Of a stretch of 52,749 nt of DNA, positions 19,301 through 52,614 are shown one piece after another. A program made the translations under genes and the position numbers. Numbering within the stretch: position 1 is the first letter of the stretch; every line of letters begins with the position of its first letter. Source of the stretch: Nemertoderma westbladi (Eukaryota > Animalia > Xenacoelomorpha); NCBI GenBank assembly GCA_032718475.1, contig JAUCBJ010004461.1, positions 1 to 52,749 on the forward strand. Direction: 5' to 3'. Under the pieces are notes generated by a model. The model saw only the letters and a list, made by a program, of their open reading frames with translations, made no database searches and had not been told where the DNA came from.

Positions 19301-19646
19301 GCGCATTGACAAACACAGATTAACACCCCATATAAGCATACACGCATTGACAAACACAGATCAGCACCCCCCTATAAGCACACACGCATTGACAAACACA
19401 GATCAGCACCCCCCTATAAGCACCACGCATTTAACAAACACAGATCAACACATCCCATATAAGCACTCACGCATTGACAAACACAGATCAGCACCCCCCT
19501 ATAAGCACACACGCATTGACAAACACATATCAACACACCCCATATAAGCACCACGCATTGACAAACACAGATCAACACCCCATATAAGCACACACGCATT
19601 GACAAACACAGATCAACACCACCATATAAGCACCACGCATTGACAA
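10321..19646. repeat. ~9.3-kb array of a 39-42-bp C/A-rich satellite with higher-order repeats
   Basis: Near-invariant core GCATTGACAAACACAGATCA plus a few recurrent variable halves (acaccccatataagcaccac, gcacccccctataagcacacac, acaccaccatatcagcattcgc). Confidence 0.97.
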
Positions 19647-19685
19647 CCAGTTAGAATAATAACTATTAGCAAAGATAATACTTAC

Positions 19686-19767
19686 TAATACCAGGTGTGG
19701 TGTCCGACCAGGAGGAACCACAGAGTGCGTGGAGAGGTAGGGTAGCTAGTAAGATTAGCCACAACAT
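19686..19767 (-). CDS. Exon 1 (signal peptide) of the secreted CUB-domain protein gene
   Basis: ATG at 19767; MLWLILLATLPLHALCGSSWSDTTPGI followed by A|gtaagt. The phase-1 donor joins exon 2 in frame (A+CT = Thr). Intervening small exons cannot be excluded. Confidence 0.82.
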
Positions 19768-19848
19768 CGTCGTTGGTTTGTTGTTGGAGTTTCTTGATAC
19801 GTTTTTTAAAATAAATTTTTTAACTTTTTTCTGCATTTCAAACGCGTC

Positions 19849-19856
19849 TATTTATA
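19849..19856 (-). promoter_or_regulatory. TATA box (TATAAATA) of the CUB gene
   Basis: Consensus TATA box about 85 nt upstream of the ATG on the same strand. Confidence 0.6.
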
Positions 19857-20227
19857 GTATTTGTACAAAGGATTGCTTCGTAATTAATAATCGTAAGGCT
19901 TGCATTTCAGTATGCAGCAACGTGGGTAATTTGAGTTAATGATAGCAGTAAGTGCGATAGTATGTACAGTGGAGCGAAGTCTGTCTCTATGTAATTGCAC
20001 TAAGTGGCAAACCATTAGTTACATTAGAGAACAATGGTAGCATTACCATTAGTATAAATGGTCCCACGCTAATAATATAACAATGGTCCTAATAGATTTA
20101 AGCGTTATAGGCAGCAGTCCGTTTTAATAGGTCTGTAATCGACATGATTACGCGATACAATAGTGTTACTGGCTTGTCGCTTGCTCACCACGTAAAAATG
20201 TTGCGCAATAAGTAAACGGCGCAGCTG

Positions 20228-21542
20228 TGCATATATGCCGGCACGCATACATGAACGCATATATGCACGCTTACATGAACACTACATATGTACGCATACA
20301 TGTACGCATATATGCACGCATACATGAGCTCATATATGCACGCATACATGAACGCATATATGCACGCATACATGAACGCATATATGCACGTATACATGAA
20401 CACCCCATATGCACGCATACATGAACGCATATATGCACGTTTACATGAACACCACATATGCACGCATACATGAACGCATATATGCACTCATTCACGAACG
20501 CATATATGCACGCATAAGTGAACGCATATATGCACGTATACATGAACACCCCATATGCACGCATACATGAACGCATATATGCACGTATACATGAACACCC
20601 CATATGCACGCATACATGAACGCATATATGCACGTATACATGAACACCACATATGCACGCATACATGAACGCATATATGCACTCATACACGAACGCATAT
20701 GCACGCATACGTGAACGCATATATGCACGCATACATGAACGCATATATGCACGCATACATGAACGCATATATGCATGCACGCATACATGAACGCATATAT
20801 GCACGTATACAAGAACACCACATATGCATGCATACATGAACGCATATATGCACGCATACATGAACGCATATATGCACGCATACATGAACGCATATACGCA
20901 CACATACATGAACGCATATATGCACGCATACATGAATGCATATACGCACGCATACATGAACGCATATATGCACGCGTACACAAACGCATATATGTACGCA
21001 TACACGAACGCATATATGCACGTATACATGAACACCACATACGCACGCATACATGAACGCATATATGCACGCATACACGAACGCATATATGCACGCATAC
21101 ATGAACGCATATATGTACCCATACACGAACGCATATATGCACGTATACATGACCACCACATATGCACGCATACATGAACGCATATATGCACGCATACATG
21201 AATGCATATACGCACGCATAAATGAACGCATATATGCACGCATACATGAACGCATATATGCACGCATACATGAACGCATATGTGCACGCATACATGAACG
21301 CATATTTGCAAGCATACACAAACGCATATATGCACGCATACATGAACACCACATATGCGCGCATACATGAACGCATATATGCACGCATACATGAACGCAT
21401 ATATGCAGGCATACACGAATGCATATATGCACGCATACATGAACACTACATATGCACGCATGCATGAGCATCACATATGCACGCATACATGAACGCATAT
21501 ATGCACGCATACATGAAGGCATATATGAACGCATACATGAAC
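20228..21542. repeat. 24-bp minisatellite (ATGAACGCATATATGCACGCATAC)n, block 1
   Basis: Tandem 24-mer, almost entirely alternating purine/pyrimidine, with internal palindrome GCATATATGC. Confidence 0.95.
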
Positions 21543-21759
21543 TGGTATGTCTGCACTATCGGAATATCCCCAATAATATGAATATCAATAGTATATAAGG
21601 CAGACACGTATAATATAAAAGTGTAGTACAGCAGTACAGTGTAATATCAGTACAGCATAGCAATAGGGAAAACCCTCCACCTATCTAGTGGTACCGGTAT
21701 CTTAGGTACATAGTCCTATAAGGGGCGAGCCATGTATATTGTACATATCAGTACATATA

Positions 21760-22225
21760 ATGAACGCATATATGCACGCATACATGAACGCATATATGCA
21801 CGCATACATGAACGCATATATGCACGCATACATGAATGCAGATATGCACGCATACATGAATGCATATATGCACGCATACATGAACGCATATATGCACGCA
21901 TACATGAACGCATATATGCAGGCATACACGAACGCATATATGCACGCATACATGAACGCATATATGCACGCTTACATGAACGCATATATGCACGCATACA
22001 TGAACGCATATATGCAGGCATACACGAACGCATATATGCACGCATACATGATCACTACATATGCACGCATGCATGTACACCACATATGCACGCATGCATG
22101 AACGCATATATGCACGCATACATGAATGCATATATGCACGCATACATGAACGCATATATGCACGCATACATGAATGCATATATGCACGCATACATGAACA
22201 CATATATGCACACATATATGCAAGC
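21760..22225. repeat. 24-bp minisatellite, block 2
   Basis: Same unit, separated from block 1 by a ~220-bp unique spacer. Confidence 0.95.
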
Positions 22226-22239
22226 ACTATATGCTTGAG

Positions 22240-22400
22240 GTGTAAGGATTGTGTTCTGTGACAAAACTACGGCATTTTAAAGAGTTTGGCATATACTGAT
22301 TGCTAAGAATCTTAGAATAAGTGGCACATTTCTAAAATGGTTTGAAAGCTATTTTTGTCAGCTACCAGAGTGACTAAATTGATCAGGTTTCTGTGTTGCT
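22240..22400 (+). mobile_element. Short CR1/L2-like RT fragment
   Basis: Translates as RIVFCDKTTAF*RVWH...ISGTFLKWFESYF, similar to the F.D..KAFD.V.H...G.LL.W..SYL motif. Confidence 0.55.
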
Positions 22401-22874: not shown

Positions 22875-23070
22875 ATCTCCCCGAGTCATTTATAATTCCT
22901 TACGAAAGTGTAATAAGTCCCTTGATAGCCTTAAGGTAACCAGTGAAGACATACCAACAAAGCCACAACGCCCTGAATTCAATATAGGACTGCCTTATGT
23001 AAAGGGACTAACAGAACCTCTAGAACGAATGTGTAAGTAATATGATGTCGGCACATATACGGTTAGGGGT
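22875..23070 (+). mobile_element. Penelope-like element, RT-endonuclease linker (left part, split by LTR insertion)
   Basis: IGLPYVKGLTEPLERMCK*YDV matches the Penelope LPY..G.SE.I.R linker and continues after 41466 as GRTLRSYL. Confidence 0.8.
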
Positions 23071-24261
23071 TGTTCGCGCTTTCAGACCTTTAGCAGTTTA
23101 ACCTGCCAAATTTAGATGTCTTCTAGATTATAAATCGACTTTAACCTATGACGAGTATTTGATACACTACATTAGCCGAAGCCAGTCTATGCGCGACCAT
23201 TCACCCGCTGGATATACCCGGGAGACTGGATTCGGAAGCTTTGACCTTATTGCGGTGTAGACCTACTGTATTATTCGACTGATTGTTAATATATAATCTC
23301 TGACCAATATTATTCACTTTCGGGAAATATTAACAGTTCCTTTAGGACGTGGCGCTCTAAATATGTAAACAGAGTTATGACTTATACTAGACACAACAGG
23401 ATGGCTATGGATTCACGTATAAAGCGCATTCTTTAGGAGATGCTTCGTTACCTGTCACAGTCATGCACACTACCGCACAATGCTGCACACCGATCTGCCG
23501 ACCTTCACTAATTTTAGTCACATATAAAGAGAACAGCAACAAACACATGTAGTGCCTATGAAATAGCATTAGAATCACTCCAAAACCAATGTAATGTAAG
23601 TCGCAATTGTTATATGTAACCGGTCTCTCTTACCTTCAGTATATCAAGAAGATTGAGGGTTTTATAATAATTTATCGATATTATCCAATATAATAATATT
23701 CCATCAACTGATATAATTAATAACCGACAGTCAATAGCAGTAAAAATGCGGTGCGTAGTTGACAATATGATTTGACACACTGACTGGCCTTGTGTCGTGT
23801 GGCGATATGATGTGGTAACAGTTATACGTTTCTATGACTAAAGCCTACTAATGTTTGGATAAAGTCTGAAACCACAGAAATTCTGAAAGCCGGTCTTCTG
23901 GCATCAGGAAAAAAGGTCAACATAAACAGTAATGCATTGCGCGATTTCCCGGAGGTTTCTGTACAAATAACAGGAGAATCGCTGTGATTGGTTGTCCGAA
24001 CAAAGAGACAAAGGAAAAGCTCCACCTGTACAGATCAGCTGTTAGCCGTCGTCATAGTAACTACACTGTGTCAAGAGGATTTTAGCGTATTGCGACATAA
24101 AATTGCTAGTTATGTCCGCTAAAGTACACATACAGCAGAAATGGCTTTTTATGTCCATTAAAACACCGGTACAGTAAGGAAACGGCTTTTTATGTCCGTT
24201 AAACCAACTACAGAGTACTTTGCGGGAAAAATAACCAGCTAATTCCGCAAAAGCTTTTACA
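23071..24261 (-). repeat. 3' LTR
   Basis: TGTTCGCGC...CTTTTACA; about 12 differences from 40276-41465 by eye; ~42-bp internal tandem repeat at about 24143-24210. Confidence 0.95.
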
Positions 24262-24269
24262 CCGCTCCC
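24262..24269 (-). other. Polypurine tract (GGGAGCGG|TGT)
   Basis: Purine-rich tract abutting the 3' LTR; identical in the second copy at 51682-51689. Confidence 0.75.
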
Positions 24270-24339
24270 ATAAAATGGGATTTAATTCTATAAAATATAA
24301 AAAATCACAGTTTCTAAAATATAAAAATACTCTAAACAG

Positions 24340-26330
24340 TTAGTCTTTCTTACGCGGACGGCGTTTACGCAGTTTTTTGAGGCTAGTAAGAGTCCTTTTC
24401 TCTTTGGGGCGAGCCACTTTACTAGGAGGGCTATAACTCCTGGGCGAAGGGTGCAATACAATTGCATCAGAAGGTTTAGGATTACGATCGGTGTATCCGC
24501 CGGTCGAGGTACCTGGTTGATCGATATCAACTTCAGTGGAGCGAGGTCTAACGGCCTTTAGGGCGCGTCTTAGGACAGCAGCTCCTACTGGTCCATGACG
24601 AGTCGTCTAGACAATAGCGGTAGGTGGACCGTGAGTGGTGAGAAACTTCCTCGGTTTAATGGTTCTTTCCAGCTCGCGTTCTCTGGCTCGATATTCGTAG
24701 GGCCGTCAAGATACTTCCTGAAACTCAGGGTGAGAGTTGATAAATAAATCGCCATACTCAGGGTCTTGACGGATGAAATTGATCAAATGGTATGAATTAA
24801 TATCGTTAGGATTGACGTTCCTGAGATATTTTCGAACAAATTTGGTGGAAATATACTCACCAACACGCTTCATTAGTTCGTAACTCGGTGTGCGTGTTTT
24901 TTGTTCAACAGACGCGAATAGATAAGGATGGAACGCGTGAACTCCCTCGTAGGCGCGTCCAGGGTAATAGCGATGGCGTGACTCACAATGTAAATCCGCG
25001 TTCACTTCCCAAGCTCGGATGTAGCGCAGGGTAATCATCTCATCTACGCTTTCCAAATCCCGGTTAAAAGGGCAATTAAAACTGGCATGTCCTTTAAGTT
25101 GACAGTGGTGGCATTGAGTCATAAATTGGGGGCAGACTGCAAAAATGTGCGAGTTATTAAGTCTGCAATACGCACAATAGATCTCCATCATCGGTTGTTC
25201 ATGGAAATAGGAGCAGGGTACGTCTGAGTCCATAGGGGTGAAATGATCTCTCGATGAGCATAATCGGCAACGTTTTCGAGAAACATAGTTGGCATGCCGA
25301 TAATCGTATGCGGTGAGACATTGTGGACCTTGATACCATTCCAATACGTAGTCGTTATCGCTGCTCCGGGGCGCTGTAGGCTGAATCTCCTCAGATTCTA
25401 AGCATGTTGGTTCGTCTTCCAATTGCATAGATGAGATAGGTGCGGCTGTCTCCGCAAGCGAACCCACTGTCTGAACTTCCACGACAGAATAACCCGTGGG
25501 TATTCGAGGTCTTTGTATAACAGATGAATGCAAGTTCTGTATACAAACGTCCTTGAAAAGGGCAAATCCCGCGCTGTCTAACTTCTCTGCAGCTGAGTCT
25601 CTTAGGCTGAGTTTGGTCAGAGCGCGGTCCTTGAACTGACTATCAACATTACGGAACGGAGTCAGAAAGCGCCTGAAACATTCGAAGCGGATGAATTTAT
25701 TGAGTTCATCTAGCTTGGCGAGTTTGGTTCCAAGTATTAAGGGATGGGCGCGTATGGTACGACTGCACACATCGGCTAGCCAACCGGCAAGTGCGGCGTT
25801 TTCAAAGATCGTGTATATAGCTAAGGAGGGACGAAGTGGAACACTCATAAAGCTATACACGGCGCCAGGTGCGGTCAATGGTCCGTCAAAATATAATCGA
25901 GAATAATGATCTCCATATACTTGTTGGTAATTGATAGGATTGCCAACCTTGAAATTCCATCCGTATTCTTGAAAGGCAAGATGTCCGATGGAGGTTCGTT
26001 GTACTTTAGTAATGCCGCTAGGTGTATTTGCATACATAGTGCGGAAGAAACCTCGGCCTTCTGCCCAGGGAGCAATCAGCTGAGTATCGATGAAAGGGTA
26101 TGGAATGTTCTCCATGTTCCCGTTGTATGCCTAACATGTTTTCCGACAGTGATGGTAGAGCAGAGGAAAAACTATTTCGCATTCTGAAATATTCAGAAAT
26201 ACGATCTCAGTAGGAGGATTCAAACGTTCGAAGACTATCTCCAAATGAATTTATCCCCAGTGATTAGGGGGGTGAACAACCAGATTTATGACACATAATG
26301 GTACCAGTTGTTCACAAACTATCCGCGTGC
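24340..26330 (-). pseudogene. Accessory ORF of the LTR element: triple CCHC Zn-knuckle protein with basic C-terminus (core ORF 24706-26115, extended through premature stops)
   Basis: Knuckles CX2CX4HX9C, CX2CX5HX4C, CX2CX4HX4C. The stop at 24706 (TGA) and a downstream TAG are CGA and CAG in copy 2. Read-through ends KKLRKRRPRKKD* at 24340. The upstream limit is uncertain. Confidence 0.75.
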
Positions 26331-26899
26331 CCTTTCAGTCCTTGTATCACGGTTGTGGACTTAAGGAAATTATTGATGGTTGATTTTCTAATCAACAACG
26401 AGAGGGTGGAAGTTGATATCATAAATATCAACAGAATGTGACATGGATATGAGGTGCGGACACCAATATAAGCATCCACATTAATAGTAAGGGATGGGAG
26501 GTTTAGTAAGAGACAGTATGATCAATACCATGATACGGCAATGATTGGTCGATCGTTTCCCAAAGCTCCGAGCGCATTGGGAAGAGAAGGTGGGACGAAA
26601 TATGTTGTATTTTCAATAGCGATGTATAGAGGGATAAGGGTAGTAAAGAGGAGGAAGGATATATGGTAGTATCTGTAAGATACCACGATGGACTTGTTTT
26701 CTGTTATGTCACCATTTATTCTTGCTCTTCAATTGCGACACTGATCACAATAATTCAGGAAGATGATGAAATAAGAGAAAATTACAGCCTCCCGAAGGAG
26801 ACCGCCCGCGAGCACCCGTGCCCCGGGGAAAATTATTCACATTATGGATCCTGGACATCAATGTATGTCTTTTCTCCAGTAGTTCTCCTCTACTTGTCT

Positions 26900-27298
26900 T
26901 TACAAACCTTCTTCCTCATTCCATCTTTCGAGTCGGTTTCGAATATAATTCTCGTGTTCTATTCTCAGTTTATCGTTCCGACTCCGCTGGGTATGATATT
27001 TAAATAAAACCATTTCCCTTTCGGTGTCTACATCGTCCGTATCGTGTAAATCGATAGGATGGCCAGTAGTTAAGAAGTCCATATACGTACCATTACGATG
27101 CGTATAGCGAGCGGTGAATTTTCTATAGTCCAATTCACGCGTAAGTTGCTCCTGGGACATTGGCGGTTCGATATAACGACCATCGTCCTCCGTAGTAGTT
27201 GGACCAGCGTCGCCGCGAATCAAGCTATCGACAAACGCTTGTAAAGGTAGAGTATATCGCTCCCTGATACCAAGATCATCTTCTATCAACTCAGTCAT
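26900..27298 (-). CDS. 132-aa acidic ORF of unknown function in the 3' internal region of the LTR element
   Basis: ATG-initiated, protein-like composition, same strand as the Zn-knuckle ORF; no recognisable motif. Confidence 0.4.
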   Translation of the reverse strand: MTELIEDDLGIRERYTLPLQAFVDSLIRGDAGPTTTEDDGRYIEPPMSQEQLTRELDYRKFTARYTHRNGTYMDFLTTGHPIDLHDTDDVDTEREMVLFKYHTQRSRNDKLRIEHENYIRNRLERWNEEEGL

Positions 27299-28121
27299 AT
27301 CTGCTACATGAGTTTATCAATATTATAATGAGTTTATATTTAGGCTAGCGGGCGTCGCTGCCTACCCCTCTCTGCCCCCGGACAGTGCAAGATCCTCAGC
27401 GCCGATGTACCGTCGTCGCTGTGCTTTCGCCAACGTAGTAGCTACACAACGACAACGATAACCGGCACAAGTCACTCCACTGTCCGTCCCAAAGGCTTAG
27501 ATTTACTTCAGGTTCTTGCTGCAGAGTTAGGGCTACTTTCACAATTGCGACTCGCTACTGTAAACACACTTTAGTAGTAACATTCACCTATAAACGCACA
27601 AAGTCCACACAACTGTCACAAATTGTACACATTCGGGCCATTTGTCCGTTAGTCAAGTGCCTTCCAGAATGCCATGTTATTATTATGTATCCTTGGATAC
27701 TAGCAGTGTGCTATTTATTCCCTATACTATTCAATGGGGTAAGCTTTCTATTGTTCTTTTATCTCACTTCTAATTCTAGCGTGGTTGTTGCTATGGTGAC
27801 ATTATGGAAAGCTAGCGGTAGAATTAGGGTAATTCTCATGCATACAGATCTGGGATGCTATTTAATAGTAATTCTTTAATTGTCAATATTCCTCTTTATA
27901 CATGATTTTATGAATTTTGTCGGCTATTGACTATATATTGGAGGTTCTCGCACACTAATATACTTAATAGGGTGAATCTCCGCTCCCATGATCTATTAAT
28001 TAATGGAATTTTGGGAATGTTATAAATTGTACAAAAATGACAATTTATCAAATTCATTAAAATATGAATTTAAATTTATTCCCGTAAATTTTATTATTTA
28101 ATATTATAATAGACATAATTT

Positions 28122-28385
28122 TATTCCAGAACATGTCTGGGGACTGGGATCCTTAATTCTAGGAAATTGGTCTTTTAAATATATCGGTGGGTGCTACGAT
28201 ATCTTAATAGACTAGAATTTTATAGGATCTAAAATTCGACAGATTTTGTAAATATTAATAATTAATATTTAGGATGGGCACCAGTTTATTCCAGAACTTG
28301 TCTGGGGACGTTAACCACTGATTCTAGAATTTTGTCTTTCAAGTATATCGGTGGGTGCCGCGATATCTTAATCGACTAGAATTGC
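28122..28385. repeat. Two diverged ~100-bp direct repeats (~165-bp period)
   Basis: ttattccagaac.tgtctggggac...tatcggtgggtgc..cgatatcttaat.gactagaatt occurs at about 28122 and 28287. Confidence 0.8.
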
Positions 28386-28430
28386 AGATGGTCAAAGGGT
28401 TTAACAGATTTATTTTGCGTTATACGCTAC

Positions 28431-28914
28431 TGTTAAAGGGACATCACGCTACTATATGTATTATTTAATATACGGTATGAGAGCAATATCGCACGAAGCA
28501 ATGTCAGTGAGAAGAGGCAAGTCGTTTCCAAGGTCTACCCAGAGCTTGGTTTAGCCGAGACACGAGGATCTGAATTTTGCATTCCTAATACTCTGCTTAC
28601 CAATAATACTTAAATATAGTAGGAGCTTTATTGTACTTTAATAAGTACGGATATTTCATCTTACTGTAGTTACGTATTTGTAATGTAATACGGACAGTAA
28701 GGAAAGAGAAAAAGAATTATTTCTCGCCGTCACTGTAAATATATAATATATAAGTAATTAAGTAATAAACACTAATATATATTGCACTAATCTACTAAAT
28801 AACCGCTAAAATAACATTCTACTAAATAAAATTAAAGAAAACGATTATAATAAAATTACAAAATAATACATACATAAATATAAAATAATAAGAATATAAA
28901 ATAGTATAGTCACA
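28431..28914 (-). other. Unpaired internal LTR-like segment (TGT...AACA) directly after pol
   Basis: PPT-like GGAGTGGGTG (28915-28924) just after the pol stop, then TGTGA...AATAAA (28627-28632)...TTTAACA. No second copy found in the window. Confidence 0.4.
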
Positions 28915-28932
28915 CACCCACTCCAGACGTTG

Positions 28933-31900
28933 TTAAGTTGGGGAGTCCCTAGATGTTTGTTGGATTAGGGAGGTGGTCGTGGGAAGAGTATCTTGCCTTC
29001 CATAGTTTCCGGAGAGTTCTCTGTCTCTTTCCAGTAAACATAAACGACCAACTGGGCGATTGAGCTGCTGTGTCTCGAAGACAATTCCCGGTTTCTTAAA
29101 GTTACGTCGCATGACGATGAGTTCTACCGATCGCACCAAACCGTCATCCGAGATATGAGTCTCGATGATACAACCTGTCTGCCACCGCTTACGTGGAAGA
29201 TCGGAATCCACAATAAGGACCATGTCTCCAGCGCTGACGTTTTCTTGCTGCGCAAACCACTTAGTTCGAAGTTGTAGCGTGGGCAGATAATGTTTTTCGA
29301 AATGGTCAGCGAAACGACGGGATAACAACTGCATAAGTTGCCAAGTTTGCCGGCAGTATTCGTCTCCGTCTGTGATTTCCGATCGTGGGAGCATGGCTAC
29401 CGGTTTCTTCAGTAGGAAGTGCGCGGGTGTTAGCGCTTCCAGGGAATCGGGACTCGATGAGACTGGCATAAGCGGTCTCTCGTTGAGATAGGCGGAGATT
29501 TCCTCCATTAACGTCCGCAAAAGTTCGTCGGTGAGATACGCGCGGCACGGCACTATGAAGTGAAATGCGGTCTTCACGCTCCTGATTAATCTCTCCCAAC
29601 TTCCTCCCCACCAAGGGGCGTCGGCGGCATTGAAGGTCCAGCTAGACACTGTTACCCTTAGCTGATCGTCCACCTGTCTTTGGTTCCAATCTTTGACGTA
29701 AGCTTTGATTTCATTGTTGGCACCAATGAAGTTCGTTCCCTTATCAGATCTCATCGTGTTACTAGTTCCAAAGCGAGCGATCTGTCGTTGTAAGCTCAAT
29801 AGGAAGCTGTTGGTAGATAAATCGTTCACCATATCGAGATGGATAGCTCTACAAGTCATACAAACAAAGATGACACACCATCTCTTGACTATAGTCCTAG
29901 CACGATATACTTCAATAGGGCCAAATAAATCTACACCGGTATTAGTAAAGGGTGGTTCATAGAAGCTTACTCGTTCCCTAGGTAATTCTGCCTCTCGCTG
30001 TGTTAAAGGCCTACTGAATGCTTTCCTACAGGGTATGCAGTTCCTAAGAACTTGGTTCAGAGCTCTACGGGGTTTATAAAAATAATAGCGAGTTCGAATT
30101 TCGCTAAGAACTCGTTCTCTACCAGCATGATAAAGTTTGCCAACGTATCAACCCATCTATCATTGTGCTAGGGAAACGATCCCTTAAGCGCATCTGTGGA
30201 TTTCTCAACAACAGGAAATACTTATCGGAATCCTCATAGCATTGCAGGAGTCTCAGCATCTGCTTGTTGGTTTCTTCATGCTCCTGATAACTTATCTTCT
30301 CCTTCAGAAACCTGTCGGATATCTTATATTTGGGAAGATCTTTAACAACATGGACCTGCACAGATGTCAGTGGAGAGGTATCACTATTAGTCTTCGCCCT
30401 GGAGTAATGATGATGAAAACATCGTTTTAAATATGTAACGGCCTTACAGAGCCGGTTCCAGGAACTGTAGTGATATATCGCTCTCTGCAGGAGAGGTGAG
30501 AGTCCTTGCGAGACGTCTGGTATTCCAGATTTCCAATCCCTCTCTCTGATTTCCACAACAGACTTATTTGTGGCTGTGGGTTTCGGATCCAAAGCGTCGT
30601 CTCCGGAAGTGTGTAGTACAGACAGATCTACCACGGGTTTAAATAACTTCGATTTACTCGCCTGCGTTTTAGGTTTGACTTTCTCCGCTCCCTTGGCCTG
30701 TCTAATCTCTGTCGTAGTAAGATGAGGAGGCCATTCATCCTCTTCCTTGCTTAGGAAGTCGGGTCCACCTAACCAGTCTGGAGTATCTATCAGTTCTTGT
30801 GGAGTTGCTCCCCTGGAGGCGATGTCTGCTGGATTAATCGTTCCGGGGCAATGTCTCCATTGATCCATCTTCGTGCGACTAAGTATAATGGCTACTCTGT
30901 TGGTAACGAAGACGCTGAACTGACAGACTTCATTGGTTATATACTCCAACATGAGTAAAGCATCAGTCCAATAGACAGTTTTCTCCAGTGGATAGTCGAT
31001 CTGTTCTGTTACATTCCGGCCTATAGCTGTAGTGTATAGAGCCGCTTTTAACTCCGCTCGAGGAACTTTCACCTTGTTGTTTATCAATGCCTTAGAGGTA
31101 ACCAAGGCGACTTTGATTCCATCCGGAGTTTCCACTCTCAGGTAGGCTACTATACCTATTCCCATATCGCTGGCGTTTCCAAACACATGGAGTTGATAGG
31201 AATACGTAGGGAGAACATGACCAAAATATGAACGGGAAATTATAAAGTTCTCGATGGCTGGTAGAGAATCTTCCCATTTCATCCACTTCTTTAATAATTC
31301 TCCCTTAAGTGGATCGTCCCATGAGTGGTTTTCAAGCCACATTTGTTGTACTAAACTCCGAGCAATCAATATAACTGGGCTAATGAATCCCAATGGATCG
31401 AAATAAGTGCTCAGGATGTTTAGTCCGAACTGGATTATCTCGCTGTTTTAGCTGGAAAAACAGGATATCTCTCTCTGTGTCCCATTTCAAACCAAGTGTC
31501 TTGGTCTCTGGAAGATCATCTTTGATTAGGTCTAGGTCTTTCGCTCCTCGATCTTCTACCGGGATCGATTCCAGAAACTCACGGGAGTTGCTGGTGAATT
31601 TAGTTAATCGAAATCCACCTTTTTTTAAGCACTCTACCGTTCCTTTGGCGACATCAATGGCTTCTTCCACAGATGGAAGGGACTTTAGATTGTCGTCCAT
31701 GTATATATCTCGTTTGATGTTGTCGATCACCTCTTTTGAGAAGGCGTCCCGGTTGTCATCAGCAGTGGTGCGCACCACTGAGCAGGCGTTTGAAGGGCTT
31801 GAGATGATCCCAAAAGCCTGGATGGTCATCCAATACTCCACCGGTTTCTGGTTGAGGTCTCCTTCAGGCCACCACAGAAATCGTAGGCTGTCTCGATCCC

Positions 31901-34900
31901 TATCCAGCGCCTTGACTTGTAAGAACATGCCTTCTATATCGGAGGCGAAACTGGTAACAACTCGGAATTAAGGGATTGGCCCATGTAGAGGGCGGAGCCG
32001 TCGAATACTACTCGTACCTCATGAGGTTTACCGGGTTTGGGAATGTAATGATGTGTTAAATAGTACGTTCTTTCAGTTAGGGGTGTTCCTTCCGGTACTC
32101 GCTCCGCATATCCCTTATTAATAAATTTCTTCAACTGAGTCTGATACATTTCTTTAGCTGAAGCATTTGCCGTAAGGCGTCGATGTAGTTGAGCAATTCT
32201 TTTTTCCGCCAAGGGTCGGTTGTTTATGAACTTTGGTTCTCGCTTTCGGAATGGGAGACCGATCTCATATCTACCTTGATCTTTAAGAAAACGTGTAGTT
32301 GTCTCCTGGATCTGCTTGGCTCTTTCTTCTTCTACCGATAGGGCCTTATCGTAGGAATTGGGCTCTACATCCTCTTGAGTAAAGAATCGTACGGCGTGTT
32401 CATCTCGAGTTTTCGTGTTATATCTCTCTATTACTTCATTCAGTTTGTCGTTATAGTCGACTCGTTCTGATGGACTAATGACTTGACATAAGTTTACTTG
32501 GTTTTGCCAAGTCTCGTTTTCCGTAAGGATATCGATGTTATTCTCCTCGTCGAAGAGCTGGTGGATATTGTCATTATCTGAGGAGTATGGTATTCCCTCA
32601 GTTGGGTCGTCAACTTCACTGCTCTCCACTTCCCATTCACTTAATTGATATACCTGTTCTTTTGGTAATCTTTCCATAAGAGTTCGACGGGAAGGGCCAG
32701 TAAAGTACCAACCTACTCTAGTTCTTCCCGCATAGACTTGTAATGGTTGCGGTTGAGCAGGCCGTTTCTCCAATGTCTCAAGCGCTTCATGCGCATTTTG
32801 GCCGATGAGTATTTGCACTCCAGGGTAATCTGTGTTGAATCTAGGTATATTAAGCTGCTGGGTGGAATCGTCCTCATCCCAGTTATAAGGTTCTACTTGG
32901 CTGGTAGCGAAGTTCTTTATCGCCACCATCTTTACTGATCTTATGCTATGTTCTCCTAGTTCATCCTGGGTGGTGGACAACGCACCTACATAATAATCCG
33001 CTATTACTGTAGATTTCCAAAGCTGCATAATTCCTGACATGTTTAACTTAGTTCGGAACTTGGGTTGTCCAGCAAAGATGTCTTCGGCTAGTTCTTTGTC
33101 GATGAATGTTCCTGTGCTACCGGAGTCAAGGAGGGCGTTCACTATATAACTCCTTTTAGGTCCGTGGACCCTTAACTGCACTACGGGAAATTCACGGATT
33201 CTTACATTGGAAGTTGGTGCTTTCCAAGATGGTTGTCGGTCAGAAGTAGTTAGGGTGAGCTCGCAGTCTGTGTCTTTTTCATACGTAAGTGCTCGATACA
33301 CTGCAGTATTTATCATGTAACAGGATTCATCTTCGTCGGAGAATTCGTCCGTATAGAATCCTTCCATCTCAGAACTTTGGTCAGTGTCGTTCACATCACT
33401 GAATTGGACATGTAGTTCTGAATCACTTACCTGACTCGGGCTGTTTCGTTCGAATTCAGTGTGCAACAAGATATGATGTTTTGCGCCGCACTTCGCACAC
33501 CTTGCATCGGAGTAACAGGTTCGCCTTTGGTGTCCTTGTCTGAGGCAATTATAACACAACCGCTTATCCCACATGACTTCCCGTCTATCCTTTAATGATT
33601 TCTTTAGGAATTCATCACACACATTCAAACGGTGGGTCCCGTCGCATAGCGCACATTTCGGTTTGATGTTACTTACCTTATTTTGAGTAACATTGTGCAC
33701 ACTCGTTCTTTCTTCGGGCTTTCTTAACTGAATTCTCTTAGGAGACGTAGGAGGAGTTTTTCTTACCTGTTCTCTCCTGTCATTGGTTCGAGACTTGAAT
33801 TTACTTACGTCTTTAGGCGTTTTATTGACATAATAAGATCTTTCAGTGTCTTTCCCGCTGTCTTCTTCTTGAGAAGCCTGGCTTTCGCCGTCGTCGGTAT
33901 AACACACTGGTGTTACTTTTCTCCTAGAAACGGGTTTCTCACTTACCTTGTTTTCCGGTGTCTTCTCTCTGGACTGCTTAGGAGCTGTAATTTCACTTCT
34001 CCATCTAAGAATGACATGAGATCAGCCATGGTAGGGTCTCGTTGTTGTTGTTCCATCATATATAACACTTTCTTATCCCAGCGTGTACCTACTCCACCCT
34101 TCGGTAAAGTAGAGGCCACGGCTCCAATAACCATAGAACTTTGATATTCATGAGACTTACCTAGCCAATCTAATTGTCTACAGATCTCCTGAATCTCATC
34201 GGAAAACTCTATAATCCCGCTGCTAATGAATTTTTGGGGCGCTACCAATTTTGCATACAAATACCTAGCTATGTTATTCCTATTACCATACCTGATGTTT
34301 AGTGTATCCCAAACTTGTCTTAATCCATCTGGATGTCCAATAAACTTTAACGCCATTAACTTGGGAGATCCTTCCAAGCACTCGATGAGGAATCTAAGTT
34401 TCTCTCCGTTAGATAGCACGGAGTTCTGTATGTTATCTTTGTAATATTCATTAAAAGGTAACCATTTCATCTCATCTCCATTGAACTTGACGATCTCTCC
34501 CACCTTTACCGCTTGACGGGCTTCGGTTCTAGCCATTTGACGCGTAAAACTTTCTTGGGCCATCATGTTATTTAATATCGAGTTATCGGTATATAAATTT
34601 ATCGGATTATTATCAAGTCTATATGGAATATCATTGTCAACAGGTTTATAATTACCCTTAATAGGGTTTACTATAGGAGTTTCCACTTCACTAGCAGTAT
34701 AGATGCGGGTAGTCTCCACACCTTGCGCATGAAATACTTCAAACCTAACAGGTTGACACATTGTAACAGGGGGTGGTGGTATACCCTTTTGTGTATTTAC
34801 TAATTTATCGCGTTCTAATGCGATACTCTGCTGCACTTCTTGCAACTCTAACCTACTTTCCCTTACTGTTCCTTTAAACTGATGAACAGTCTCCTGCATC

Positions 34901-35700
34901 TGCCCGAGCAGGAGATTCATCCCCCGCCGCCCCTCATCCACCCACTCGACCGCCGGAGCGGGAGCCGCCAACGTAGTAGCGGGTAGACGAGGGACAACGG
35001 GCGACAAATCATTGATGTTTCGCTCGGAGTCCAGGACTGGAACTGTCACAGGGGTTGTTTTGTGGGGCACAGGTAGTTTAGTACTGTGCAAAGGGAATTT
35101 AGAGGTAGGTTCTGGGAGCACAGATGTCTCTATCACCGAAGGGGTGATTTCAAGAACAGGCCTAATTATTTCAGGCTCATCTACTATAGTAGGGAGTCTT
35201 TTTATTTCAATTATTTGGTCTGTGGGTTCTGTACTACCTAAGTCTGTGTTAGTTAGTTGCCTTCTAACAGCTGGGGGCAAATCAGGCAATTTCTGACGGT
35301 GGGACATTCTTCTACGTCTGCTTAGACGAGATCTATTTCCTCCGCCTTCAGGATCGGTGGTATCGCCTTCATCAGATGATGTATCGCTTGCGTCCTTCTG
35401 GGCTCCTCCCCGAGGCGCACCCACGAGGCGGATGCTGTCCCACTACCCTTGGGGCCAGTCCGACTCCGTTTTTATCAGACCGGGCCGGAGGGTAGCCCGA
35501 TGCTTCCCGGGTTCAATTTTCAATCCCCCGATCACACCGGCACAGCTCGTCGCACATGTAGCCAGATGGTCGGCTACTGTCAACTTACTGTGGCCTGACT
35601 GTACATTGAGCCAACTCAGAGAGTCAACCGGCAGGTGGACCAGTCGATAGCGATTGAGCATCAAGGTCGCCCTTGAGCCAAACCGACGGTCTTGTCCCAA
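28933..35700 (-). pseudogene. gag-pol: Bel/Pao gag-pol polyprotein, disrupted
   Basis: DUF1759-like gag (KFNGDEMKW...EKLRFL...YGN), three Bel-type knuckles (CALCDGTH, CYNCLRQGH, CAKCGAKHHILLH), protease LLDSGS, RT (VRVVFDGSA, LRFLWW, YMDD), RNase H (LHVFGNAS, YWTDA, NPADIASRG), integrase (HAG..C..C, GVDLFGP, SDKGTNF, GGSWER), DUF5641-like tail. Frameshifts or deletions near 33990, 31955, 31410 and 30140; in-frame stop at 35443. Confidence 0.93.
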
Positions 35701-36540
35701 GTGGGCTTGCGCTACCCAACATGGAATATTGACACGTTTTCACCCGCCTCACTGGCAGTATTGAGGGGAAGTTGGTTCCGCAAACAATACTGACTAGCTC
35801 GAAAGCTAGGAACAAGTAACCACTTACCAGTCACTGTACACGTGTACTCAACAGATGTTCACAATATCAAGTACACTACGGTAAACACAAAATCTGACAC
35901 ATACCATGCACACACAGAGGACATAATCGGGAAAGACCAAATCGGTGACAAAATCAGAGGGGACAAAATTGTATCGACTGTTAAAAGAGTCGAGAGTACC
36001 TTATTTTGCCTTCAGGGCAAAATAACTTTGTGTGCACAAAGTATGCTGGGGCGCAGTAAAGATATGGTCCTACTAATACCAGCGGCGTCTGGACCAACCG
36101 GCAAGGGTTCCCATACTCACTCGCAGTGGCCATACATACACTCACGTATACCACGTACCCACAGCAACTGAAGCTCAAGCAAACAGCCACTGATCGTCCA
36201 CACACAAACCACAGATTCCAGAGTATCATTCACTCGGACCACACTACAACACCAACCCCTCCTTGCAGCCAATATTCCGGGTGCTACCTCCATTCCAATA
36301 GTAGTACCAACAGAATCATCAGAAATCTGCCCATTCCGATGCAACACCTCCATTCCAATAGTGCTACCCTGGGAAAAGACACGTTTTGGCAACCGATCGG
36401 AGACAGTAAAGAGTCTGGTCAACTCATACATACCAAACATAGACCTACCACATAGACCACATAAACCACAGATCACACTAAGCCACCACCCCTACTGTGT
36501 ACAGGACTGGCAGTACGGCAACAGGCCGACTAGACGGTAC

Positions 36541-36550
36541 CACGGCACCA
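36541..36550 (-). other. tRNA-His-type PBS-like 10-mer (AACA|TGGTGCCGTG) in the element interior
   Basis: Complementary to the tRNA-His 3' end CACGGCACCA and preceded by an LTR-end-like AACA; the match is only 10 nt. Confidence 0.45.
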
Positions 36551-36683
36551 TGTTGATTCATGGTTCGTAAGACACGAGGGCCTTCAGTAACTCCCTTGCA
36601 CTATAAAGACGATTGAACGTGCCCCCAGACCCTCACGAGTCCGCCGCCGCCTGTTAGGGACCCCCTATAGAGACCTCACCTCT

Positions 36684-38090
36684 TTAGGATCCCTGTCTTT
36701 TGGGAGTAGATCGATTCATCATCTGCATATTACTAGCTGTTAACTGTTTATTTATGCAGTCTTGATTCTCATGAATATTTTCCAACTCTAGTTGGGTGGT
36801 CTCTTCAGATGCACTTCGTTCTGCTTCTGCCATTGCTATTTTTCTTTCCGCTTCTGCCGCTGCCTCTGCCGCCTTTCTTTCCGCTTCTGCCGCTGCCATT
36901 GCCGCTGCTGCTGTCTTTCTGTCTTCTATACGTTTTTTCTTGACTTGTTCTTCTTGGACCCTAGCGATGCGGAGCCTTTCATCAAATTTAGCTTGGTTCG
37001 CAGCTATCATATCCGCATCGATTGCGTCCAACACAAGCTTGGCTCCTTCACTATTAGGGCTAAGTCCAGACAGCCGTCTCCTCAACTCTTCGTCACCTAC
37101 AAAGCGTTGATAGTCTGACAGATAGATGTCAATAGCATCCCTCTTATGCGGTTTCTCTGCTGTCGCTTCGCTTTCCACTTGGGAAAAGGTAGCGTCTGTT
37201 GATTCTCCATGGATTGAGCGCTCAGCCAGCTGAGATTTCCACTGGGCAGTTCCTTGAACTTGGAGACTCACTCGCTGAAACCAAGTCTTTACGGCAACTT
37301 GCAACGACGTGTCTTGTCTTCTTTTCGAAGCCTCCTCAAAGGCCGATAAGATTAGTCTGATTCGTAGAATTCTTTTTCTAACTTGATAAAGCAGCTCTGC
37401 CTGCTCTTGAGGTCCTTGGGGTTGTCGAAACAGTTGTTCCTTTAATCGCTCCATAGAGCTGAAGAATCCCTGTACCAATCGTGCTGCTGACCTCTTCCAC
37501 ACAGCTGGATCGCTGGTTTCTTTTGTCACTCCCATCCTGTGTATGTCTTCCCAGGCAGCTTCCAATAAGTCAAACGGGAGTCCGGGTCCAGGGAAGTTCC
37601 ATTGCGACTCGACAATAGACTTCAGTTCTTCACTTGTGCATCCCGCATAACTATCCTTGGTCGATCGCTTACTTCTCGCCCAATCAATTTGGTGTTCCTC
37701 CACCGCAATCAATACCCTAGTGAGTACGGCTGCAGGAAGGATGAGAAGGGGATCCGAATAAACCGCATCTGCCATCTTTGCTCCGCGCTCGGATGTCAGC
37801 TCTACAGTATCCGCACTACTGGAGCTGTCGGGCCGCTGAGAAATAAGTTCTCGGCTCGAGTGTTGCTGCTGTTCCGCTGCTTCTTGGTCCCGCTTGACCT
37901 GAGCTCGAGTGCCTATGATAGACCTACGGTATTGGACTAGCCTAGGGTCTGATATTACTACTGGAGGGATGATCTTTCTTACAGTAGGAGGTGAATTGAA
38001 CTTCGGTCTCATACGTTCCACACTCCTGTCTGGGTCACAGATGGTTGTATCTATGAGGCTGTCTGACAGGTTTTGCTTTGTGTCAGACAT
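36684..38090 (-). CDS. 468-aa upstream ORF with coiled-coil/Ala-Glu-rich C-terminal part (probable gag N-terminus or separate ORF0)
   Basis: Intact ATG-initiated ORF; AAAAMAAAEAERKAAEAAAEAERK helix resembles Bel/Pao gag N-terminal low-complexity regions. Confidence 0.65.
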   Translation of the reverse strand: MSDTKQNLSDSLIDTTICDPDRSVERMRPKFNSPPTVRKIIPPVVISDPRLVQYRRSIIGTRAQVKRDQEAAEQQQHSSRELISQRPDSSSSADTVELTSERGAKMADAVYSDPLLILPAAVLTRVLIAVEEHQIDWARSKRSTKDSYAGCTSEELKSIVESQWNFPGPGLPFDLLEAAWEDIHRMGVTKETSDPAVWKRSAARLVQGFFSSMERLKEQLFRQPQGPQEQAELLYQVRKRILRIRLILSAFEEASKRRQDTSLQVAVKTWFQRVSLQVQGTAQWKSQLAERSIHGESTDATFSQVESEATAEKPHKRDAIDIYLSDYQRFVGDEELRRRLSGLSPNSEGAKLVLDAIDADMIAANQAKFDERLRIARVQEEQVKKKRIEDRKTAAAAMAAAEAERKAAEAAAEAERKIAMAEAERSASEETTQLELENIHENQDCINKQLTASNMQMMNRSTPKRQGS

Positions 38091-38227
38091 GTTTGTTTGT
38101 ACAGTTGAATGCCTACTGCTATATTACAATTAAAGCAAGTCTAGTAATTCAGTATCAACTGTTAGCCTAGTAATTAATTACCGATACTGCTACTCAGTGT
38201 AGCGTGATATATATATATAATATATTA

Positions 38228-38478
38228 GAATACCAGTATGCTTATAGTATATATATAAGTATTATTACAGACTAGGTTTGTCACAGAATACTGGTATATA
38301 ATTTCAGCACAAATATATATAAATATATAATAGGCCTATCGTGAATACCGGTATACAGCTTACACTTATAGTATATATAAGTATAATTATGGACTAGAAT
38401 TAATTACAGAATACCGGTATAATTTCAGCCTAAATTTATAGAAATAAATATGATAAGCCTATTGTAAATACCGGTATG
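38228..38478. repeat. ~120-bp diverged tandem duplication with recurring AATACCGGTAT motif
   Basis: Two alignable AT-rich units in the 5' leader. Confidence 0.65.
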
Positions 38479-39429: not shown

Positions 39430-40002
39430 AAATATTACGCTACGCGTACAGACTACTCAAACAAAATATAGACCAAATGCTGGCAGACTACTATCAAGCC
39501 CAAACAAACTACAGTATATGCAGACTCCGAAATGGTTAGTTAGTATGCGTTCTAACCGAGTAGTACGACTTATTCTTTCAGGGGGATTGACCTAACAACA
39601 CTGGAAGCCCCTACATTCCTAACTAGTACTTTATCGGACATACATTCTACACACACCACAATCTCTTCAGACCTAACAACAGCCAGACAACAATCCAGCC
39701 TACAAATTATCTAAATAAGAAATATTACGCTACCCGTACAGACTACACAAACAAAATACAGACCAAACGCTGGCAGACTACTATCAAGCCTAAACAAACT
39801 ACAATATAGGCAGACTCCGAAATGGTTAGTTAGTATGCGTTCTAACCGAGTAGTACGACTTATTCTTTCGAGGGGATTTACCTCACAGCACTGGAAGCCC
39901 CTACGTTCCTAACTGGTACTTTATCGGACATACACTCTACACACACCGCAATCTCTTCAGACCTAACAACAGCCAGACAACAATCCAGCCTACAAATTAT
40001 CT
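39430..40002. repeat. 290-bp tandem duplication in the 5' leader
   Basis: aatattacgctac...tacaaattatct at 39431-39712 and 39721-40002. Confidence 0.9.
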
Positions 40003-40263
40003 GTACAATCTGAGCAGGCTTACACGCCTTCTGCTCAATATTGGCCTACAAATAAATAAAACTGACAGAAATAAGTAAAATCCCAATAAAAACCAGGCGT
40101 ACCCGATTACTTATTAAGACCTACCGGTATATAATTATAAAAATCGAATAATACTGCTGTACCTGTACTGCTGTAAGTACCGGTCCGGGTGGTTAGGTAG
40201 TTAGGCCTACTGGGTACCGGTTGACCAGTACTTCAGCTTTATTGCCTACTGCAATACAGAAGC

Positions 40264-40275: not shown

Positions 40276-41465
40276 TGTTCGCGCTTTCAGACCTTTAGCA
40301 GTTTAACCTGCCAAATTTAGATGTCTTCTAGATTATAAATCGACTTTAGCCTATGACGAGTATTTGATACACTACATTAGCCGAAGCCAGTCTATGCGCG
40401 ACCATTCACCCGCTGGATATACCCGGGAGACTGGATTCGGAAGCTTTGACCTTATTGCGGTGTAGGCCTACTGTATTATTCGACTGATTGTTAATATATA
40501 ATCTCTGACCAATATTATTCACTTTCGGGAAATATTAACAGTTCCTTTAGGACGTGGCGCTCTAAATATGTAAACAGAGTTATGACTTATACTAGACACA
40601 ACGGGATGGCTATGGATTCACGTATAAAGCGCATTCTTTAGGTGATGCTTTGTTACCTGTCACAGTCATGCACACTACCGCACAATGCTGCACACCGATC
40701 TGCCGACCTTCACTAATTTTGGTCACATATAAAGAGAACAGCAACAAACACATGTAGTGCCTATGAAATAGCATTAGAATCACTCCAAAACCAATGTAAT
40801 GTAAGTCGCAATTGTTATATGTAACCGGTCTCTCTTACCTTCAGTATATCAAGAAGATTGAGGGTTTTATAATTATTTATCGATATTATCCAATATAATA
40901 ATATTCCATCAACTGATATAATTAATAACCGACAGACAATAGCAGTAAAAATGCGTTGCGTAGTTGACAATATGATTTGACACACTGACTGGACTTGTGT
41001 CGTGTGGCGATATGATGTGGTAACAGTTATACGTTTCTATGACTAAAGCCTACTAATGTTTGGATAAAGTCTGAAACCACAGAAATTCTGAAAGCCGGTC
41101 TTCTGGCATCAGGAAAAAAGGTCAACATAAACAGTAATGCATTGCGCGATTTCCCGGAGGTTTCTGTACAAATAACAGGAGAATCGCTGTGATTGGTTGT
41201 CCGAACAAAGAGACAAAGGAAAAGCTCCACGTGTACAGATCAGCTGTTAGCCGTCGTCATAGTAACTACACTGTGTCAAGAGGATTTTAGCGTATTGCGA
41301 CATAAAATTGCTAGTTATGTCCGCTAAAGTACACATACAGCAGAAATGGCTTTTTTGTCCATTAAAACACCGGTACAGTAAGGAAACGGCTTTTTATGTC
41401 CGTTAAACCAACTACAGAGTACTTTGCGGGAAAAATAACCAGCTAATTCCGCAAAAGCTTTTACA
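40276..41465 (-). repeat. 5' LTR
   Basis: About 99% identical to 23071-24261; followed by TSD GGGGT. Confidence 0.95.
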
Positions 41466-51759: not shown

Positions 51760-52614
51760 TTAGTCTTTCTTGCGCGGACGGCATTTACGCAGTTTTTTGA
51801 GGCTAGCAAGAGTCCTTTTCTCTTTGGGGCGAGCCACTTTACTAGGAGGGCTATAACTCCTGGGTGAAGGGTGCAATACAATTGCATCGGAAGGTTTAGG
51901 ATTACGGTCGGTGTATCCGCTGGTCGAGGTACCTGGTTGATCGATATCAACCTCAGTGGAGCGAGGTCTAACGGCCTTTAGAGCGCGTTTTAGGACAGTG
52001 CTCCTACTGGTCCCTGACGAGTCGTCTGAACGATAGCGGTAGGTGGACCGTGAGTGGTGAGAAACTTCCTAGGTTTAATGGTTCTTTCCAACTCACGTTC
52101 TCGGGCTCGATATGCGTAGGGCCGTCGATGTACTTCCTGTAACTCTGGATGCGAGTTGATAAACAAATCGCCATACTCCGGGTCTTGACGGATGAAATTG
52201 ATCAAGTTGTATGAATTAATATCGTTAGGATTGATGTTCCTGAGATATTTACAAACAAATTTGGTGGAAATACACTCACCAACACGCTTCATTAGTTCGT
52301 AACTCGGTGTGCGTGATTTTTGTTCAACAGACGTGAATAGATAAGGATGGAATGCGTAAACTCCTTCGTAGGCGCGTCCAGGGTAATAGCGATGGCGTGA
52401 CTCACAATGTAAATCCGCATTCGCTTCCCAAGCTCGGATGTAGCGCAGGATAATCATCTCATCTACGCTTTCCACATCGCGGTTAAAAGGGCAATCAAAA
52501 CTGGCATGTCCTTTAAGTTGACAATGATGGCATTGAGTCATAAATTGGGGGCAGACTGCGAAAATGTGCAAGTTATTGAGTCTGCAATACGCACAATAGA
52601 TCTCCATCACCGGT
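51760..52614 (-). pseudogene. C-terminal part of the accessory Zn-knuckle ORF, copy 2
   Basis: Homologous to 24340-25195; 1-bp deletion near 52000; interrupted at 52615 by another LTR. Confidence 0.85.

Follow-up and report, generated by a model that had tools for sequence, protein, structure and literature searches.

A selected orphan zinc-knuckle gene in the interval separating pol from the 3' LTR of an 18.4-kb BEL/Pao retrotransposon of Nemertoderma westbladi, and its possible part in RNA export

What kind of gene occupies the env position of a long terminal repeat (LTR) retrotransposon when its product has none of the features of an envelope protein? The question is raised by a stretch of 52,749 nucleotides (nt) from Nemertoderma westbladi (contig JAUCBJ010004461.1 of assembly GCA_032718475.1; the whole stretch is hereafter called the window), which carries on its minus strand an 18.4-kb BEL/Pao retrotransposon with an additional open reading frame (ORF) located in the interval that separates pol from the 3' LTR. 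A first-pass annotation, made from the letters of the window, had described this region as a conserved non-env accessory gene. The analysis reported here finds the accessory gene to be real, element-encoded and selected, and its product may, more tentatively, be involved in the export of the element's RNA. The gene, its second copy and the boundaries of the element are as follows.

24340..26115, minus strand (element-sense): accessory ORF copy 1, 591 codons with two in-frame stops
51760..52614, minus strand: accessory ORF copy 2, the last 286 codons only, with one single-base gap
50493-51681, minus strand: copy 2's own 3' LTR, after ORF copy 2
40276..41465, minus strand: 5' LTR of the element, TG...CA
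23071..24261, minus strand: 3' LTR of the element, TG...CA
~24262-24269, minus strand: short polypurine tract, directly before the 3' LTR

The frame of copy 1 is open from 26130, and its first ATG, at 26115, stands in a favourable context, with A at -3 and G at +4. The final stop (24342-24340) lies 78 nt before the start of the 3' LTR (24261), with the polypurine tract in between. The sense-strand ORF in the env position is thereby confirmed at 26115-24340, after pol and before the 3' LTR; of the range 24340..26330 first given for the gene, the ORF lies within, while 26131-26330 falls outside it, and the ORF is indeed located 3' of pol, but 2.8 kb with a 132-codon ORF intervenes. The two in-frame stops are at codon 470 (24708-24706) and codon 503 (24609-24607), and the reconstructed terminus, ending in KKLRKRRPRKKD, can be read directly in the copy-1 frame. 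Shuffling the pol-to-LTR interval 1000 times gives no stop-free frame longer than 193 codons, as against 474 observed. The ORF lies inside the LTRs and the target-site duplication, which bears out the claim that it is encoded by the element.

Copy 2 covers the C-terminal 286 of 592 codons only, without knuckle 1 of the protein described below, and differs from copy 1 by 52 mismatches over 857 bases as well as a gap of one base, which sits in copy 2 near copy-1 coordinate 24580. The complementary lesions reported earlier are present, with breaks at different places in the two copies and the 1-bp gap in copy 2 alone, and all six of the synonymous codon pairs named at that time are found. The junction running from the ORF through the 3' untranslated region (UTR) and the polypurine tract to the LTR is identical in both copies. 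Contigs of four public DNA runs, from three studies, were also compared; two of the runs (X1 and X2) come from one sample, and one run may be the source of the window. At the first in-frame stop of copy 1, 99.8-100% of the contig depth there reads otherwise in 4/4 runs, and this stop is therefore private to copy 1. Summed contig depth, which cannot rank the parts of the element, falls by a factor of ~11 to 49 where two bins meet next to the ATG; the small ORF and the end of pol have a higher summed depth than the accessory ORF. The ORF of copy 2 is interrupted at 52615 by the LTR of a different subfamily, where 5 bases are shared with the LTR end (52610-52749); as this LTR is 17% diverged (22/127) from copy 2's own 3' LTR, it is not the sister of the latter. 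The break may be due to a nested insertion or to recombination between subfamilies.

Purifying selection, as the first-pass annotation had proposed, is borne out over the whole length of the ORF. Between the two copies, 282/286 codon pairs are usable (the four with a stop or gap being excluded), and these contain 27 synonymous and 23 non-synonymous differences, giving a ratio of non-synonymous to synonymous substitution rates (dN/dS) of 0.24 (bootstrap 0.13-0.45), far below 1. The same base changes scattered at random give 0.69 and reach the observed value in 0/2000 cases. The ratio is 0.26 before the first stop and 0.20 in the tail after it, so the tail is coding too, and six blocks of 48 codons range from 0.12 to 0.68. 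The sense frame has the lowest dN/dS of all frames, and the remaining five hold 8-26 stops within the same 858 bases. Copies 1 and 2 agree in all 8 ligands of knuckles 2 and 3.

For the half that is missing in copy 2, the contigs of the four runs were compared over 25200-26130, where the figures below refer to the best-supported 40 of 226 variant rows. Among these, 28 are synonymous (null 12.1) and 26/40 are at third positions. When the variants are split by their share in run X2, sites varying among other copies are synonymous in 26/32 cases (null 9.8, 0/20000), and sites private to copy 1 in 2/8 (null 2.3). The synonymous share is 13/16 in residues 1-200 and 7/14 in the acidic linker (201-262), while the sole listed variant at a knuckle-1 ligand is synonymous. 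Indel rows of at least 10% in the 931 bases number one, in one contig of run X4, and in a wider variant comparison none of the 12 indel rows shown (of 69) lies inside the ORF. One result of the wider comparison weighs against selection, namely that the 15 ORF rows among its best 40 of 1139 comprise 7 synonymous changes, 7 non-synonymous changes and 1 at a stop; because these rows were selected for near-fixed differences, the 7 to 7 split fits mostly private sites. Since shared sites are mostly synonymous and private sites are near the null, the accessory gene is one that was purified during replication and has been decaying neutrally after insertion. One contig of run X4, which accounts for roughly three quarters of that run's depth at this place, omits 1509 bases (25419-26929) and lacks a single base at 25369; it is a deletion derivative, which loses the N-terminal domain, keeps the knuckles and could join the small ORF to them.

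The predicted product consists of a helical domain, an acidic linker and three knuckles, followed by a basic terminus.

25072..25269, minus strand: three Cys/His knuckles, amino acids 283-348
24343..24378, minus strand: basic C-terminal tail, candidate nuclear localization signal (NLS) or arginine-rich RNA-binding motif

Three Cys/His motifs are present, as had been claimed for three zinc knuckles, but only knuckle 3 (residues 335-348, CX2CX4HX4C) is canonical, whereas knuckle 1 (residues 283-301, CX2CX4HX9C) and knuckle 2 (residues 314-328, CX2CX5HX4C) are variants. At least two knuckle-like motifs occur in 0/20000 protein shuffles. Judging from their spacing and the conservation of the ligands, the knuckles are predicted to bind zinc and RNA. 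The tail contains 9 K/R in 11 residues, which is matched by 1/5000 shuffles. The tail was at first taken for a by-product of the polypurine tract, an idea abandoned because the LTR edge is placed 78 nt off, and a likeness in codon usage to gag-pol (r 0.38) was dropped, the off-frame control giving 0.32.

No homolog at E<=0.001 was found for the 591-residue read-through among 1.84 billion protein representatives, or for the 474-residue frame among 3436 near-length candidates of a 5.8-billion set; nothing below E 0.49 was found among Protein Data Bank (PDB) sequences, no family in NCBIfam, and no related loci in viral or metagenome contigs. An Atlas search gave no usable match, from which neither absence nor novelty follows. 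In Pfam, the protein matches only zf-CCHC_3, below threshold (20.9 bits against a cut-off of 27, E 3.5e-4). The loose resemblance to Nanos or Air/ZCCHC7 that had been suggested is not supported. Nanos and Air1/Air2/ZCCHC7 have in common with the accessory protein several Cys/His ligands in a short stretch, but the Nanos finger has the spacing CX2CX12HX10C and Air proteins have five knuckles, whereas the accessory protein has another spacing and three knuckles, and the zf-nanos profile matches neither the whole protein nor a 100-residue knuckle piece. Sequence matches to a capsid, RRM or ORF1 domain are likewise absent from these searches, and no known gag or ORF1 matched; with dN/dS far below 1 as well, neither of the outcomes named beforehand as a refutation of the first-pass reading has occurred. 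The Foldseek comparison that had been advised returned nothing at E<=0.001, a result which is meaningless with single-sequence structure models of pLDDT (predicted local distance difference test) 33.6 and 34.0. By its sequence the protein is thus neither an env product nor recognisable as a Nanos protein, an Air protein or a captured gag, while it may have a remote capsid or ORF1 fold.

The host of this gene is a minus-strand BEL/Pao LTR retrotransposon that spans 41465 to 23071 (18,395 bases). Its 5' and 3' LTRs differ by 11 mismatches in 1190 sites (0.9%), and an identical 5 bases stand outside both LTR outer ends. LTRs with TG...CA ends, a target-site duplication and a polypurine tract are all as expected of a BEL/Pao element. 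An initial idea that the 5' LTR is truncated was dropped after the LTR edges had been placed. Its other coding parts are listed here.

28933..35442, minus strand: BEL/Pao gag-pol, five pieces with four frame changes in copy 1's element
36684..38090, minus strand: ORF0, 468 codons, upstream of gag
26900..27298, minus strand: small acidic ORF, 132 codons, after pol

The gag-pol region contains DUF1759, a triple Cys-His box, protease, reverse transcriptase (RT), Peptidase_A17, integrase and DUF5641, that is, BEL/Pao domains in Gypsy-like order (DUF1759 E 1.5e-11, Peptidase_A17 3.2e-33, integrase 9.1e-6, DUF5641 1.2e-19). For the Peptidase_A17 piece, PF05380 is found in 54/55 relatives, and the top identity over half of the query is 42%; for the integrase, no related loci were found in viral or metagenome contigs. 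The triple Cys-His box of BEL/Pao gag is CX2CX3-4HX4C, CX2CX2-4HX4-5C and CX2-4CX3HX4H (PMC554778), and all three motifs are present in the 31934-34021 gag frame. The usual length of BEL/Pao elements is 4.2-10 kb (PMC3118150), and the extra length of the 18.4-kb element houses three additional ORFs (468, 132 and 591 codons). ORF0 has no homolog among 7995 candidates scored, and its end is rich in Ala/Glu/Lys and helical-looking; the 132-codon acidic ORF has no Pfam or NCBIfam match. The four frame changes of gag-pol occur despite LTRs only 0.9% apart and represent either real decay or assembly error.

The element is also a candidate for Tf1-like self-priming. The 12 bases after the 5' LTR (40264-40275), which lack the usual tRNA-pairing TGG start, exactly complement 41020-41031, 434 nt into the LTR (also 23815-23826). 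The duplex between the LTR and the primer-binding site (PBS) extends to 19 pairs (-19.4 kcal/mol), and the 12-mer complement occurs in 6/20000 LTR shuffles. Copy 2's LTR retains the self-complementary site, with one change that is G-U compatible.

How the accessory ORF would be expressed is a further question, as three other ORFs precede it and the promoter LTR is ~15 kb away. Splicing is suggested by the following candidate signals, where the slash in donor words marks the splice junction.

33425..34162, minus strand: donor-like word cluster in gag, AG/GTAAGT four times plus AG/GTAAGA
26131..26170, minus strand: candidate splice acceptor, a pyrimidine-rich run with YAG at 26133-26131, phase 0

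The first intron bases of the AG/GTAAGT words would be 34160, 33946, 33676 and 33430, and that of AG/GTAAGA 33766. Across the 16-kb interior there are 9 sites of the donor consensus G/GTRAG, five of them within 730 bases of gag, and a leader donor candidate is located at 35827. The four AG/GTAAGT words in gag compare with a mean of 0.11 in a codon-shuffle null that fixes protein and codon usage (0/3000), whereas two broader patterns, AG/GTRAG (5 against 0.81, 2/3000) and another (5 against 1.06, 9/3000), give less extreme values. Elsewhere in the three scanned stretches, which total 48 kb of the window, AG/GTAAGT is absent from both strands, and the sequence contexts of the gag donor words are not copies of one another. 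Relative to the nucleocapsid frame, four of the five gag donors have phase 0; phase 0 also applies to the acceptor, which opens the ORF frame 16 nt upstream of the ATG.

Structured RNA of the sense strand was surveyed by folding 229 segments of 150 nt (61 + 168) with 25 shuffles each, where two outliers had z -5.5 and -10.1, the next being -3.7. Two hairpins were thus defined.

27379..27486, minus strand: hairpin A, a 44-pair rod with 9 G-U pairs, candidate response element
34914..35010, minus strand: hairpin B, a rod inside the gag frame

With 200 shuffles, hairpin A has z -5.44 in sense against -0.56 in antisense, and hairpin B -6.21 against -0.94, so that in these folding models both are G-U-rich rods predicted to exist only as element-strand RNA. 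Hairpin A sits between pol and the 132-codon small ORF, and the two hairpins are 7.5 kb apart. An identical 15-nt word forms the tip of hairpin A (27442-27428) and lies near the tip of hairpin B (34980-34966). The longest word common to shuffled hairpins is 13 nt, and 15 was reached in 0/5000; in the window, the word has only these two matches, up to 3 mismatches allowed. Rfam contains nothing at gathering score for 23000-41500, no match at E<=1 for hairpin A, and only a generic microRNA-precursor match for hairpin B (29 bits against a cut-off of 93). The 132-codon acidic ORF begins ~80 nt past hairpin A, and the hairpin might instead serve the translation of this ORF.

Taken together, these features suggest that the accessory protein exports the element's unspliced RNA from the nucleus in a Rev/CERV-like manner, a reading by analogy which is tentatively preferred here, though it is a little more apt to be wrong than right. 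The accessory protein would be a nuclear zinc-knuckle RNA-binding protein made from a predicted spliced message, in which the gag donor words, or the leader donor at 35827, would be joined to the acceptor at 26131, yielding either a stand-alone 591-residue protein or an in-frame fusion to the N-terminal part of Gag. An RNA with such strong donors would need help to leave the nucleus unspliced. The basic tail would bring the protein into the nucleus, where its knuckles may recognise the 15-nt word that both long hairpins present. Hairpin A would mark only unspliced RNA, because it lies inside every predicted intron, while hairpin B would be removed if leader donor 35827 is used and retained if the gag donors are used. 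RNA export had been among the roles suggested by the first-pass annotation and has circumstantial support in the donor cluster and the hairpins, whereas the chaperoning of a duplex and the counteraction of silencing found no support.

A number of points weigh against the export reading. Its steps (splicing, nuclear import, hairpin binding and export) are all inferred. A Gag-fusion message would retain hairpin B, which lies upstream of the gag donors. Some repeated 15-mer arises in 22/200 shuffles of the internal region, and the 15-nt word takes up a different fold in each of the two predicted structures. The knuckles of the element's Gag, in packaging, or a host export factor could bind the hairpins equally well. 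Because the choice of the exact 8-letter donor word followed the first survey, the figures for the broader patterns are fairer. The phase match presupposes a single-frame gag in intact elements, and the present copy changes frame at 33943-34021. The acceptor is weak, being absent from the 9 sites with at least 11 pyrimidines in 14, and it may not be common to the copies, because immediately upstream of 26120 the sequence of other copies departs from the present one (8 and 3 contigs have loose ends there). Motifs resembling a nuclear export signal (NES) number 4, against 3.7 by chance. The accessory protein has no sequence match to CERV in the 1.84 billion representatives, where the presence of CERV itself is unchecked.

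The closest known system is CERV of Cer1, a Ty3/Gypsy element of C. elegans. CERV is an orphan that occupies the env position and is made by splicing from gag exons; it has an NLS and a Cys finger and is required for the export of genomic RNA (PMC10309623). The accessory ORF shares with it a non-env sense location after pol and before the 3' LTR, but Cer1 belongs to Gypsy and the present element to BEL/Pao; CERV combines a C4 finger with a G-like domain, whereas the accessory protein has three CCHC-type knuckles; and export has been shown for CERV and is inferred for the accessory protein. Twin hairpins with a common word are seen here, whereas the term 'response element' is absent from the main text of PMC10309623. 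The accessory protein is therefore not filed as a member of a CERV family. Its likeness to the Rev and Rev response element (RRE) system of human immunodeficiency virus type 1 (HIV-1) consists of structured RNA in a would-be intron and a basic motif in the predicted spliced product, while the constitutive transport element (CTE) of Mason-Pfizer virus differs in working without an element-encoded protein (PMC10309623). Unlike in Rev, NES-like motifs in the accessory protein are not above chance. Rev is also small and has no zinc knuckles.

Among BEL/Pao elements, env genes are of the F type in Roo and of the gB/Chuviridae type in Tas, Cer7 and mosquito elements (PMC13524379, PMC554778, PMC3118150). 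These elements have the superfamily and the gene position in common with the accessory ORF, which differs in having no envelope features and in its 18.4-kb element with three extra ORFs. In the available parts of PMC13524379, PMC554778, PMC3118150 and PMC2774666, env genes are the only extra genes mentioned for BEL/Pao, and the available text of PMC8220671 contains nothing relevant on extra BEL/Pao ORFs. Additional ORFs in the env position are known from the plant Gypsy elements Grande (gene23), Retand and RIRE2 (PMC7264820), from rotifer elements (ORF3 types; PMC5408684) and from giant planarian elements (PMC6431247). The plant nuclear examples are antisense, whereas the accessory ORF is sense (PMC7264820), and the rotifer ORF3s are GDSL lipases, DEDDy exonucleases or membrane proteins, unlike the accessory protein (PMC5408684). 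Knuckles in this gene position are not described for the plant (PMC7264820) or rotifer (PMC5408684) extra ORFs in the portions of these papers at hand. A knuckle-bearing non-env ORF in BEL/Pao was not found in the literature searched, a weak negative, as the slashed name is probably missed there and neither subscription journals nor Repbase belong to that literature; Repbase entries or supplementary tables may hold such cases. The accessory gene is thus of a kind known from other elements and, by analogy, resembles a Rev/CERV-type anatomy.

Other explanations of the gene have to be weighed against RNA export. It may encode a second nucleocapsid-like module, as a Gag fusion or alone, which chaperones or packages the long genomic RNA including the self-priming duplex, the hairpins being packaging signals. 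The Gag-like layout of helical domain, linker and three knuckles, the in-frame Gag fusion that phase-0 gag donors would give and the 19-pair LTR-to-PBS duplex all favour this module, which is nevertheless doubtful, as a complete triple Cys-His box is already present in the element's gag, the similarity to that gag is confined to Cys/His spacing (E 0.01), with nothing in a further comparison and no capsid family match, and the terminal basic cluster would better suit a nuclear protein. A nuclear regulator of another sort is slightly more doubtful still, either an activator of LTR transcription, as are foamy-virus Tas and Tax of human T-lymphotropic virus (HTLV), or a suppressor of small-RNA silencing. 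Its location just before the 3' LTR, the basic tail and the acidic linker are compatible with such a role, orphan status fits fast evolution in host conflict, and nuclear accessory proteins of this region have been reviewed for plant elements (PMC7264820); however, a regulator leaves the donor cluster and the twin hairpins unexplained, in the family as found in this genome the low dN/dS throughout the six blocks gives no hint of an arms race, and no DNA-binding or silencing-factor domain was found in Pfam or NCBIfam searches.

The three remaining explanations are much less probable. The first is a gag/ORF1 or host gene, recently captured or nested from another element, that is carried passively; in its favour, triple CCHC arrays are typical of retroelement Gag/ORF1 proteins, and the low-confidence models are compatible with a capsid or RRM fold. 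Passive carriage is improbable in view of the missing homologs in protein searches, the identical 3' UTR, polypurine tract and LTR junction of the two copies, and the selection among copies with neutral decay after insertion, which amounts to active use; this evidence counters passive carriage only, and an ancient capture may be the origin of the gene. A degenerate or unusual envelope gene is very improbable: the first-pass claim of a non-env product without a transmembrane helix or fusion features is upheld, as no hydrophobic segment exceeds a Kyte-Doolittle mean of 1.19 over 19 residues in a hydropathy scan and no signal-like segment is seen, there is one N-glycosylation sequon, a single RXKR/RXRR word stands at the extreme end, the cysteines are arranged as zinc ligands, and no likeness to viral fusogens was found in PDB sequences, protein representatives or Pfam. 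Least credible of all is a frame open by chance, or a constraint on the RNA or an antisense frame. Two antisense frames do have dN/dS below 1 (0.38 and 0.50), values which are expected because of frame coupling, and the stops in the five other frames, the lowest ratio in the sense frame and the third-position excess among the family variants all speak for the sense protein.

The export of unspliced RNA from long, intron-like retrotransposons is understood for few elements, and within the literature surveyed, as far as the available texts go, CERV is the sole retrotransposon protein shown to export it. If the export reading is true, a second, unrelated export protein in another superfamily would represent convergence on retrovirus-like regulation, and the candidate cis element, being short and repeated, would be directly testable. 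A wider proposal, which is unlikely as a whole, would make this a complex BEL/Pao element with an independently evolved Rev/RRE-type switch, combining a spliced orphan CCHC protein, recognition of the hairpin word, export of a 17-kb RNA, self-primed reverse transcription and two more orphan genes. Regardless of export, the locus adds a protein that is new, under selection and an orphan, in a BEL/Pao element whose size is almost double the usual upper limit.

The surrounding window is animal-like, repeat-rich DNA. The element is inserted in the GIY-YIG endonuclease frame of a Penelope-like element (22900-23070 and 41466-41884, plus strand; weak Pfam match, E 0.002). It contains a tandem duplication in the leader (39420-40002, 290 bases, 94% alike) and a repeat after pol (28084-28383, 137 bases, 80% alike). 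Elsewhere, a 3.03-kb tandem duplication with 96-100% identity (42801-48834) adjoins a 366-codon cytochrome P450 frame (48710-49810, minus strand), remnants of another BEL/Pao gag-protease and two RT frames like those of long interspersed nuclear elements (LINEs) are located at 952-7700, and large satellite arrays of 22-, ~42- and 12-base units occupy 8400-22300.

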